Shown here in pieces: positions 29,601 through 31,361 of a stretch of DNA of 64,000 nt. Made by a program: the position numbers. Position 1 is the first letter of the stretch. Each line of letters opens with the position of its first letter. Location of the stretch: the NCBI RefSeq assembly GCF_057098645.1, contig NZ_CM169472.1; one strand, 5' to 3'.

Positions 29601-31361
29601 TAACCACAAAATGTTTATGATGATGCAAAAGTAACACATTTAATTTATTAATTATAAAGGGCTTTAATTTTTAGCCCTTTTATTTTTTGGTGTTATGCTT
29701 TTAAATTTTCTATAACTGCCAAAAATTACATGTTTTGTCTTCTATTTTTGTTGTTTTAATGTAAATTTTGACCATTTGGTCCACTTTTTCCTGCTCGTTT
29801 TTATTTCATGCAATCTTCTTGCTGCGCAAGCGTTTTCCAGAACAGGTTAGATGATCTTTTTGTCGCTTAATGCCTGTAAAACATGCATGAGCCACAAAAT
29901 AATATAAAAAATCCTGCCATTAAGTTGACTTTTAGCGCCCATATCTCCAGAATGCCGCCGTTTGCCAGAAATTCGTCGGTAAGCAGATTTGCATTGATTT
30001 ACGTCATCATTGTGAATTAATATGCAAATAAAGTGAGTGAATATTCTCTGGAGGGTGTTTTGATTAAGTCAGCGCTATTGGTTCTGGAAGACGGAACCCA
30101 GTTTCACGGTCGGGCCATAGGGGCAACAGGTTCGGCGGTTGGGGAAGTCGTTTTCAATACTTCAATGACCGGTTATCAAGAAATCCTCACTGATCCTTCC
30201 TATTCTCGTCAAATCGTTACTCTTACTTATCCCCATATTGGCAATGTCGGCACTAATGACGCCGATGAAGAATCTTCTCAGGTACATGCACAAGGTCTGG
30301 TGATTCGCGATCTGCCGCTGATTGCCAGCAACTTCCGTAATACCGAAGACCTCTCTTCTTACCTGAAGCGCCATAACATCGTGGCGATTGCCGATATCGA
30401 TACCCGTAAGCTGACACGTTTACTGCGCGAGAAAGGCGCACAGAATGGCTGCATTATCGCAGGCGATAACCCGGATGCGGCGCTGGCGTTAGAAAAAGCC
30501 CGCGCGTTCCCAGGTCTGAACGGCATGGATCTGGCAAAAGAAGTGACCACCGCAGAAGCCTATAGCTGGACACAAGGGAGCTGGACGTTGACCGGCGGCC
30601 TGCCAGAAGCGAAAAAAGAAGACGAGCTGCCGTTCCACGTCGTGGCTTATGATTTTGGTGCCAAGCGCAACATCCTGCGGATGCTGGTGGATAGAGGCTG
30701 TCGCCTGACCATCGTTCCGGCGCAAACTTCTGCGGAAGATGTGCTGAAAATGAATCCAGACGGCATCTTCCTCTCCAACGGTCCTGGCGACCCGGCCCCG
30801 TGCGATTACGCCATTACCGCCATCCAGAAATTCCTCGAAACCGATATTCCGGTATTCGGCATCTGCCTCGGTCATCAGCTGCTGGCGCTGGCGAGCGGTG
30901 CGAAGACTGTCAAAATGAAATTTGGTCACCACGGCGGCAACCATCCGGTTAAAGATGTTGAGAAAAACGTGGTGATGATCACCGCCCAGAACCACGGTTT
31001 TGCGGTGGATGAAGCAACATTACCTGCAAACCTGCGTGTCACGCATAAATCCCTGTTCGACGGTACGTTACAGGGCATTCATCGCACCGATAAACCGGCG
31101 TTCAGTTTCCAGGGGCACCCGGAAGCCAGCCCTGGTCCACACGACGCCGCGCCGTTGTTCGACCACTTTATCGAGTTAATTGAGCAGTACCGTAAAACCG
31201 CTAAGTAATCAGGAGTAAAAGAGCCATGCCAAAACGTACAGATATAAAAAGTATCCTGATTCTGGGTGCGGGCCCGATTGTTATCGGTCAGGCGTGTGAG
31301 TTTGACTACTCTGGCGCGCAAGCATGTAAAGCCCTGCGCGAAGAGGGTTACCGCGTCATTC

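Follow-up and report, generated by a model that had tools for sequence, protein, structure and literature searches.

The TTG start codon of Escherichia coli carA, the in-frame GTG upstream of it, and the conserved sequence that surrounds the start

The 64,000-nt stretch of Escherichia coli DNA analyzed here (the window) carries the genes rihC, dapB, carA, and carB in that order, as read from the ORF list and from comparison with RefSeq. A caiF-like ORF presumably follows carB and completes the order rihC-dapB-carA-carB-caiF. The 801 bases from 29600 to 30400 are matched in 5425 of 5426 complete E. coli genomes; the identity reaches 100% with strains of the O145 lineage, not with K-12. Over the 231 nt from 29880 to 30110, a single base differs from K-12 MG1655, and the control region of K-12 carA (b0032) has the same TTG start, Shine-Dalgarno (SD) sequence, ARG boxes, and gene order. 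We see no substantive difference from the K-12 carAB locus; in its identity, the window lies with the O145 lineage. The coordinates of the features discussed below, with the basis for each, are listed in Table 1.

Table 1. Features of the carAB genes and their control region, in positions of the window
Feature	Position	Strand	Basis and remarks
Promoter P1 of carAB	29925..29953	+	-35 TTGACT 29925-29930, 17-nt spacer, -10 CAGAAT 29948-29953; consensus scan 9/12
5' leader of the P1 transcript (GTTTGCC...)	29960..30012	+	Match to Rfam RF02750, ES003 sRNA
Promoter P2, inferred	29994..30027	+	-35 TTGATT 29994-29999, -10 ATTAAT 30016-30021, start near 30027
ARG box 1 (TGTGAATTAATATGCAAA)	30011..30028	+	1 mismatch to WNTGAATWWWWATTCANW; nearly invariant in 51 same-register species
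ARG box 2 (AGTGAGTGAATATTCTCT)	30032..30049	+	3 mismatches to WNTGAATWWWWATTCANW; consensus positions conserved across species; contains GTG 30033-30035
In-frame GTG opening the longest ORF, not a functional start	30033..30035	+	Direct reading; anti-SD duplex +0.4 kcal/mol
Shine-Dalgarno sequence GGAGG	30050..30054	+	5 nt before TTG; anti-SD duplex -9.8 kcal/mol; same spacing across species
carA initiation codon TTG	30060..30062	+	RefSeq K-12 and O145, PMC6245113, 79/79 species
carA CDS	30060..31208	+	382 aa; glutamine amidotransferase small subunit of carbamoyl-phosphate synthetase
Predicted hairpin GUUCUG-GAAGA-CGGAAC	30081..30097	+	Codons 8-13, +22 to +38; RNAalifold consensus
carB CDS, large subunit	31226..34447	+	ATG start, AGGAG SD; ORF list and RefSeq annotation

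The carA product aligns with PDB 1cs0_B over 382 of 382 residues and passes the equivalog model TIGR01368 with 508.2 bits against a cutoff of 307.35. On the 391-aa form of the protein, that is, the translation of the longest ORF, the N-terminal CPSase small-chain domain (PF00988) occupies residues 16–141 and the C-terminal class-I glutamine amidotransferase domain (PF00117) residues 205–381. The Cys-His-Glu triad is complete, with Cys269, His353, and Glu355. The gene lies directly upstream of carB, which begins 17 nt after the carA stop, and the two genes form one operon. The 90%-identity protein cluster of CarA also lists full-length CarB (1073–1075 aa) and has a 1074-aa representative; the presence of CarB in this cluster is probably a clustering artefact.

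The upstream promoter has its hexamers suitably spaced from the G at 29960 (GTTTGCC), the base at which a match to the Rfam family ES003 begins, and was named P1 by its position and from the literature (PMC6245113). The start points of P1 and P2 are published as lying 67 nt apart (PMC6245113), and it is from this distance, together with a reading of the sequence, that the hexamers and start point of P2 were inferred; a simple promoter consensus scan did not call P2. The ES003 match (RF02750) scored 87.4 bits with cmscan against a gathering score of 37 and covers the full-length model (1–53). Its 5' boundary coincides exactly with the inferred P1 start, and its 3' boundary reaches one base into ARG box 1. 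ES003 here seems to be a short piece from the 5' end of the P1 leader and not an independent gene; the piece possibly originates from an ArgR roadblock or as a processing product. Two further candidates for a regulatory element in the leader were rejected. A riboswitch was set aside, as the beta-proteobacterial carA motif is inapplicable and ES003 is the only Rfam match in the spacer. Whole-leader structure fared no better: the fold of the P2 leader is not superior to that of shuffled sequences (z = −1.0), and in the P1 leader (z = −2.25) the structure is upstream of the SD.

Read directly, the sequence from 30011 onward runs TGTGAATTAATATGCAAA-TAA-AGTGAGTGAATATTCTCT-GGAGG-GTGTT-TTG-ATT-AAG. 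The two ARG boxes, each 18 bp long and 3 bp apart, reproduce the arrangement described for the carAB ArgR operator, with two 18-bp boxes separated by 3 bp (PMC6245113). Consensus matches to the ARG box number 15 over the whole window versus 8.65 expected by chance, which is marginally above expectation; the adjacent pair is the published operator. ArgR binding and repression of P2 by arginine have been reported (PMC6245113, PMC6524683). The operon would be transcribed from a pyrimidine-controlled P1, starting at 29960, and from an arginine-repressed P2, starting near 30027. With the 67-nt spacing, ARG box 1 overlaps the inferred −10 element and start point of P2 (29994–30028), unlike the review, which has the ARG boxes partly overlapping the P2 −35 element (PMC6245113).

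Next, we consider where translation of carA begins. The RefSeq start of carA corresponds to window position 30060 both in O145 RM9872 and in K-12, where b0032 (29651–30799) is annotated from the TTG. In the PDB, every E. coli CPSase small-subunit chain has 382 residues and begins with MIKSALL, a sequence that starts at residue 10 of the long ORF, and a 2018 review of carAB regulation gives TTG as the initiation codon of carA (PMC6245113). The initial annotation had placed the start at TTG 30060 and had named the K-12 annotation as a check; these records bear out the placement. Predicted duplex energies with the 16S rRNA 3' end are −9.8 kcal/mol for the TTG and +0.4 kcal/mol for the GTG at 30033. 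The SD is at a working distance for the TTG, and the sole other in-frame candidate, this GTG, is SD-less. The original 1984 sequence paper reportedly left the start of carA undecided between UUG and AUU, and a study from 1985 is said to have decided for UUG. In full-text literature searches, the carA UUG start was found only in the reviews of 2018 and 2019 and in an Acinetobacter PNA paper, and the supplements of TRAINSPOTTER, TetRP, and Giess 2017 (initiation-site or N-terminomics data) hold no carA entry. The TTG start and the ArgR operator of carAB are already known, textbook features.

We scanned species-representative genomes and obtained 80 loci from Enterobacterales and Vibrionaceae, 79 of which include the carA 5' end. 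At the position of the E. coli TTG, all 79 species have TTG. By comparison, none of the 78 fourfold-degenerate sites at invariant carA residues is itself invariant, the commonest base being present in a mean of 44.7 of the 79 species. Therefore, the TTG is under selection, far beyond what chance would produce. The GGAGG bases are invariant in 78–79 of the 79 species and always stand 5 nt upstream of the TTG.

These alignments also bear on the ATT at 30063–30065, the codon after the TTG. AUU is a rare start codon known in E. coli from infC, and the 8 nt between the SD and the ATT are still a workable spacing. However, codon 2 of carA is not kept as ATT, specifying I, S, N, T, or K among the 79 species in which the TTG is invariant, and it is the TTG that the review (PMC6245113) and RefSeq name. 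We consider initiation at the ATT to be scarcely conceivable.

The longest ORF in the carA frame does begin at 30033, as the initial annotation had it, and extends to 31208 (391 aa). The opening codon had been called an upstream in-frame ATG; on direct reading it is a GTG, from which translation would yield MSEYSLEG, and the nearest ATG (30022–30024) belongs to another frame, where it begins an ORF of 4 codons, MQIK-stop. The GTG lies 27 nt upstream of the TTG. Because the published 67-nt spacing places the P2 start near 30027, P2 transcripts would carry only ~6 nt between their 5' end and the GTG. This codon coincides with positions 2–4 of ARG box 2, the G being an unconstrained N position and the TG part of the conserved TGAAT half-site.

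Could this GTG be the real start of carA, or one used alongside the TTG, so that a 391-residue CarA extended N-terminally by MSEYSLEGV is made? In its favor, the longest ORF begins with it, and the codon at −27 is of a start type in 44 of the 79 species (GTG in 37, ATG in 5, TTG in 2). The GTG occurs in 37 species, and most Enterobacterales keep the frame open, so a low level of initiation on P1 transcripts is conceivable. However, 24 species have a non-start codon at −27, and in 11 the nine codons ahead of the TTG include a stop in frame. Furthermore, ARG box 2 accounts for the bases of the GTG. Among the 51 species aligned in the E. coli register, position −27, the N position of the box, is G in 40, A in 5, T in 4, and C in 2; position −26 is T in 45 and C in 6; and position −25 is G in 51 of 51. 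The nine-codon extension peptide varies freely among the 79 species, and since the TIGR01368 match begins at residue 14 of the 391-aa form, the extension matches no profile. Both the lack of an SD (+0.4 kcal/mol) and the closeness to the P2 transcript end (~6 nt) also count against a start at the GTG, and RefSeq, the PDB chains, and the review (PMC6245113) all use the TTG. When sequences were simulated at the base composition of the dapB-carA spacer, 45% of them had an ATG, GTG, or TTG in frame between the true start and the nearest stop upstream. Given this chance expectation, an upstream in-frame codon is unremarkable and uninformative. We regard a functional start at GTG 30033 as very improbable.

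The 391-aa, GTG-initiated CarA has nonetheless been deposited in GenBank under several accessions (e.g., BAG75556.1 and ALY11489.1), from 40 contigs, versus at least 1000 for the 382-residue form. This longer CarA is a minority mis-annotation, and its deposition means that the longest-ORF trap has caught some annotators. For annotation, the longest-ORF rule fails at carA. The correct TTG start is nevertheless recoverable from sequence alone, by means of the SD and the comparison across species.

Two short upstream ORFs were examined as regulatory uORFs and rejected. The one from ATG 30022 (ATG CAA ATA AAG TGA, 30022–30036) has no SD (+0.4) and lies within the ARG boxes, and the one from GTG 30055 (GTG TTT TGA, 30055–30063) abuts the SD, leaving no spacer. 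The TGA of this second mini-ORF overlaps the TTG start, and TTGA is invariant in the 79 species.

Taken together, carA is almost certainly translated from the TTG at 30060–30062, with GTG 30033 serving not as a start but as part of the ArgR operator and the nine-codon extension being untranslated leader. For this reading, our own analysis contributes the sequence features, annotation, cross-species conservation, and SD energies; the TTG initiation codon, the 67 nt between start points, and the binding of ArgR to the two boxes are taken from the literature. In mechanistic terms, the strong GGAGG 5 nt upstream would place the 30S subunit at UUG 30060–30062. The GTG would represent the nTG of the TGA(A)T half-site in ARG box 2 of the ArgR operator, which overlaps promoter P2, and, having no ribosome-binding site, it would leave the nine-codon "extension" as untranslated leader. 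The initial annotation had suggested tight transcriptional and translational control from the upstream codon and the ARG-box-like sequences. The transcriptional part stands: the ARG boxes proved genuine, which supports control by ArgR, itself well documented. The translational part, insofar as it relied on the upstream codon, does not, as that codon is SD-less, belongs to ARG box 2, and is conserved neither as a start nor as part of an open frame.

Selection on translation initiation nevertheless seems to exist, since the SD, the spacer, the TTG, and the first codons, in a region spanning 30046–30097, are frozen across species. This rests on evidence other than the upstream codon and ARG boxes to which the initial annotation had pointed. 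Next to the invariant TTG, position −3 is G in 78 of the 79 species, −2 is T in 76, and +4 is A in all 79 even though residue 2 may be I, S, N, T, or K. In the same loci, carB begins with ATG in 68 of 68 cases, but its SD spacing and spacer sequence are variable. In Enterobacterales, synonymous codon entropy along carA reaches its minimum at codons 2–13, with 0.34 bits versus a mean of 1.10 bits, the first rank among 291 windows. The 5' end of carB follows the same trend more weakly (0.60 versus 0.93, rank 7 of 267).

Outside Enterobacterales and Vibrionaceae, the TTG start occurs in Aeromonadales, Oceanospirillales, and Moraxellales as well. In records of a plasmid collection, carA likewise begins with TTG in Aeromonas caviae, Amphritea japonica, and two Acinetobacter species. 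In Aeromonas and Amphritea, the TTG is the only possible start, because in-frame stops occur at −15 and −18. The same collection shows ATG starts in Neisseria, Legionella, alpha-proteobacteria, and Firmicutes, with Ralstonia being ambiguous. Many of the carA-bearing records in this collection, at 2–5 Mb, are evidently chromosomes or chromids labeled as plasmids. For Acinetobacter baumannii, the TTG start of carA has been named independently (PMC12525168).

Within the constrained early codons, a short hairpin is predicted (Table 1). Its pairing holds in 97.2% of cells, compared with 26–53% for slid-partner controls, and none of 500 shuffles reached the observed value. Two of the pairs show compensatory synonymous changes, U-A to C-G and G-C to A-U. 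However, the amino acid sequence VLEDGT dictates four of the six pairs, and the covariation comes down essentially to two lineage events, in Vibrionaceae and in Proteus. Aeromonas has a weakened form of the hairpin, and Amphritea and Acinetobacter lack it. We know of no sRNA partner of this hairpin.

These observations allow the TTG start to be extended, tentatively, into a larger module. The UUG would belong to a selected unit, made up of GGAGG, the 5-nt spacer, the UUG, A at +4, constrained early codons, and the predicted stem-loop from +22 to +38, that either sets CarA output or is targeted by a post-transcriptional regulator; the stem-loop could act in the manner of that of fepA. The invariance of the TTG in 79 of 79 species against 0 of 78 fourfold sites argues for such a unit, as do the reach of the TTG into Aeromonadales, Oceanospirillales, and Moraxellales (with PMC12525168 for A. 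baumannii) while Neisseria, Legionella, alpha-proteobacteria, and Firmicutes use ATG, and the near-invariance of the carA spacer and +4 position in loci where the SD spacing and spacer of carB vary. The entropy minimum at codons 2–13 and the 97% paired hairpin with its two compensatory pairs point the same way, and an initiation-activating stem-loop in early coding sequence is a published concept. However, genes in general tend to vary less at synonymous sites near their 5' end, carB among them, and the stem-loop is largely dictated by VLEDGT, covaries essentially through the two lineage events, and is weak or missing in the more distant Aeromonas, Amphritea, and Acinetobacter. Nor does the single-sequence fold of the P2 leader exceed shuffles. 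In addition, carAB mRNA and enzyme levels show a near-perfect correlation in the review (PMC6245113), which argues against major translational regulation. On balance, we regard this extension as possible but on the unlikely side. In its fullest form, it is somewhat more doubtful still: the module, including frozen codons 2–13 and the covarying predicted hairpin, may have been selected since before the split of Enterobacterales and Vibrionales, with the UUG being older, as it also occurs in Aeromonadales, Oceanospirillales, and Moraxellales, and it could set the CarA:CarB output or dock a post-transcriptional regulator, the hairpin compensating for the weak codon.

Other E. coli genes with conserved non-AUG starts are infC (AUU, autoregulated through IF3) and cyaA (UUG). 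Like these genes, carA keeps a weak initiation codon over long evolutionary distances. Unlike them, it has a strong SD with optimal spacing, and a regulatory role of the weak codon is only putative. The translation-activating stem-loop of fepA, from 2017 work as cited in PMC11979758 and PMC7534054, offers another comparison. As represented in those citing papers, it resembles the carA hairpin in being short and in lying in early coding sequence, just past the region covered by the 30S subunit at the start codon; the carA hairpin differs in being predicted only and in being largely dictated by the amino acid sequence. We therefore treat the predicted carA hairpin, as a candidate translation-activating stem-loop, as a lead and not a result. 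The point of possible interest at this locus is the rigid upkeep of a weak start codon and its surroundings across Gammaproteobacteria.

Rfam searches also gave matches elsewhere in the window. A match to the sok antitoxin (RF01794) at 10343–10495 on the minus strand, with 122 bits, implies a toxin-antitoxin locus of the hok/sok type. A match to tpke11 (RF02031) lies at 8881–8958 on the plus strand with 69.6 bits, and one to ES036/CssrF (RF02751) at 385–427 on the minus strand scores 38.8 bits, barely over the gathering score of 37.6.
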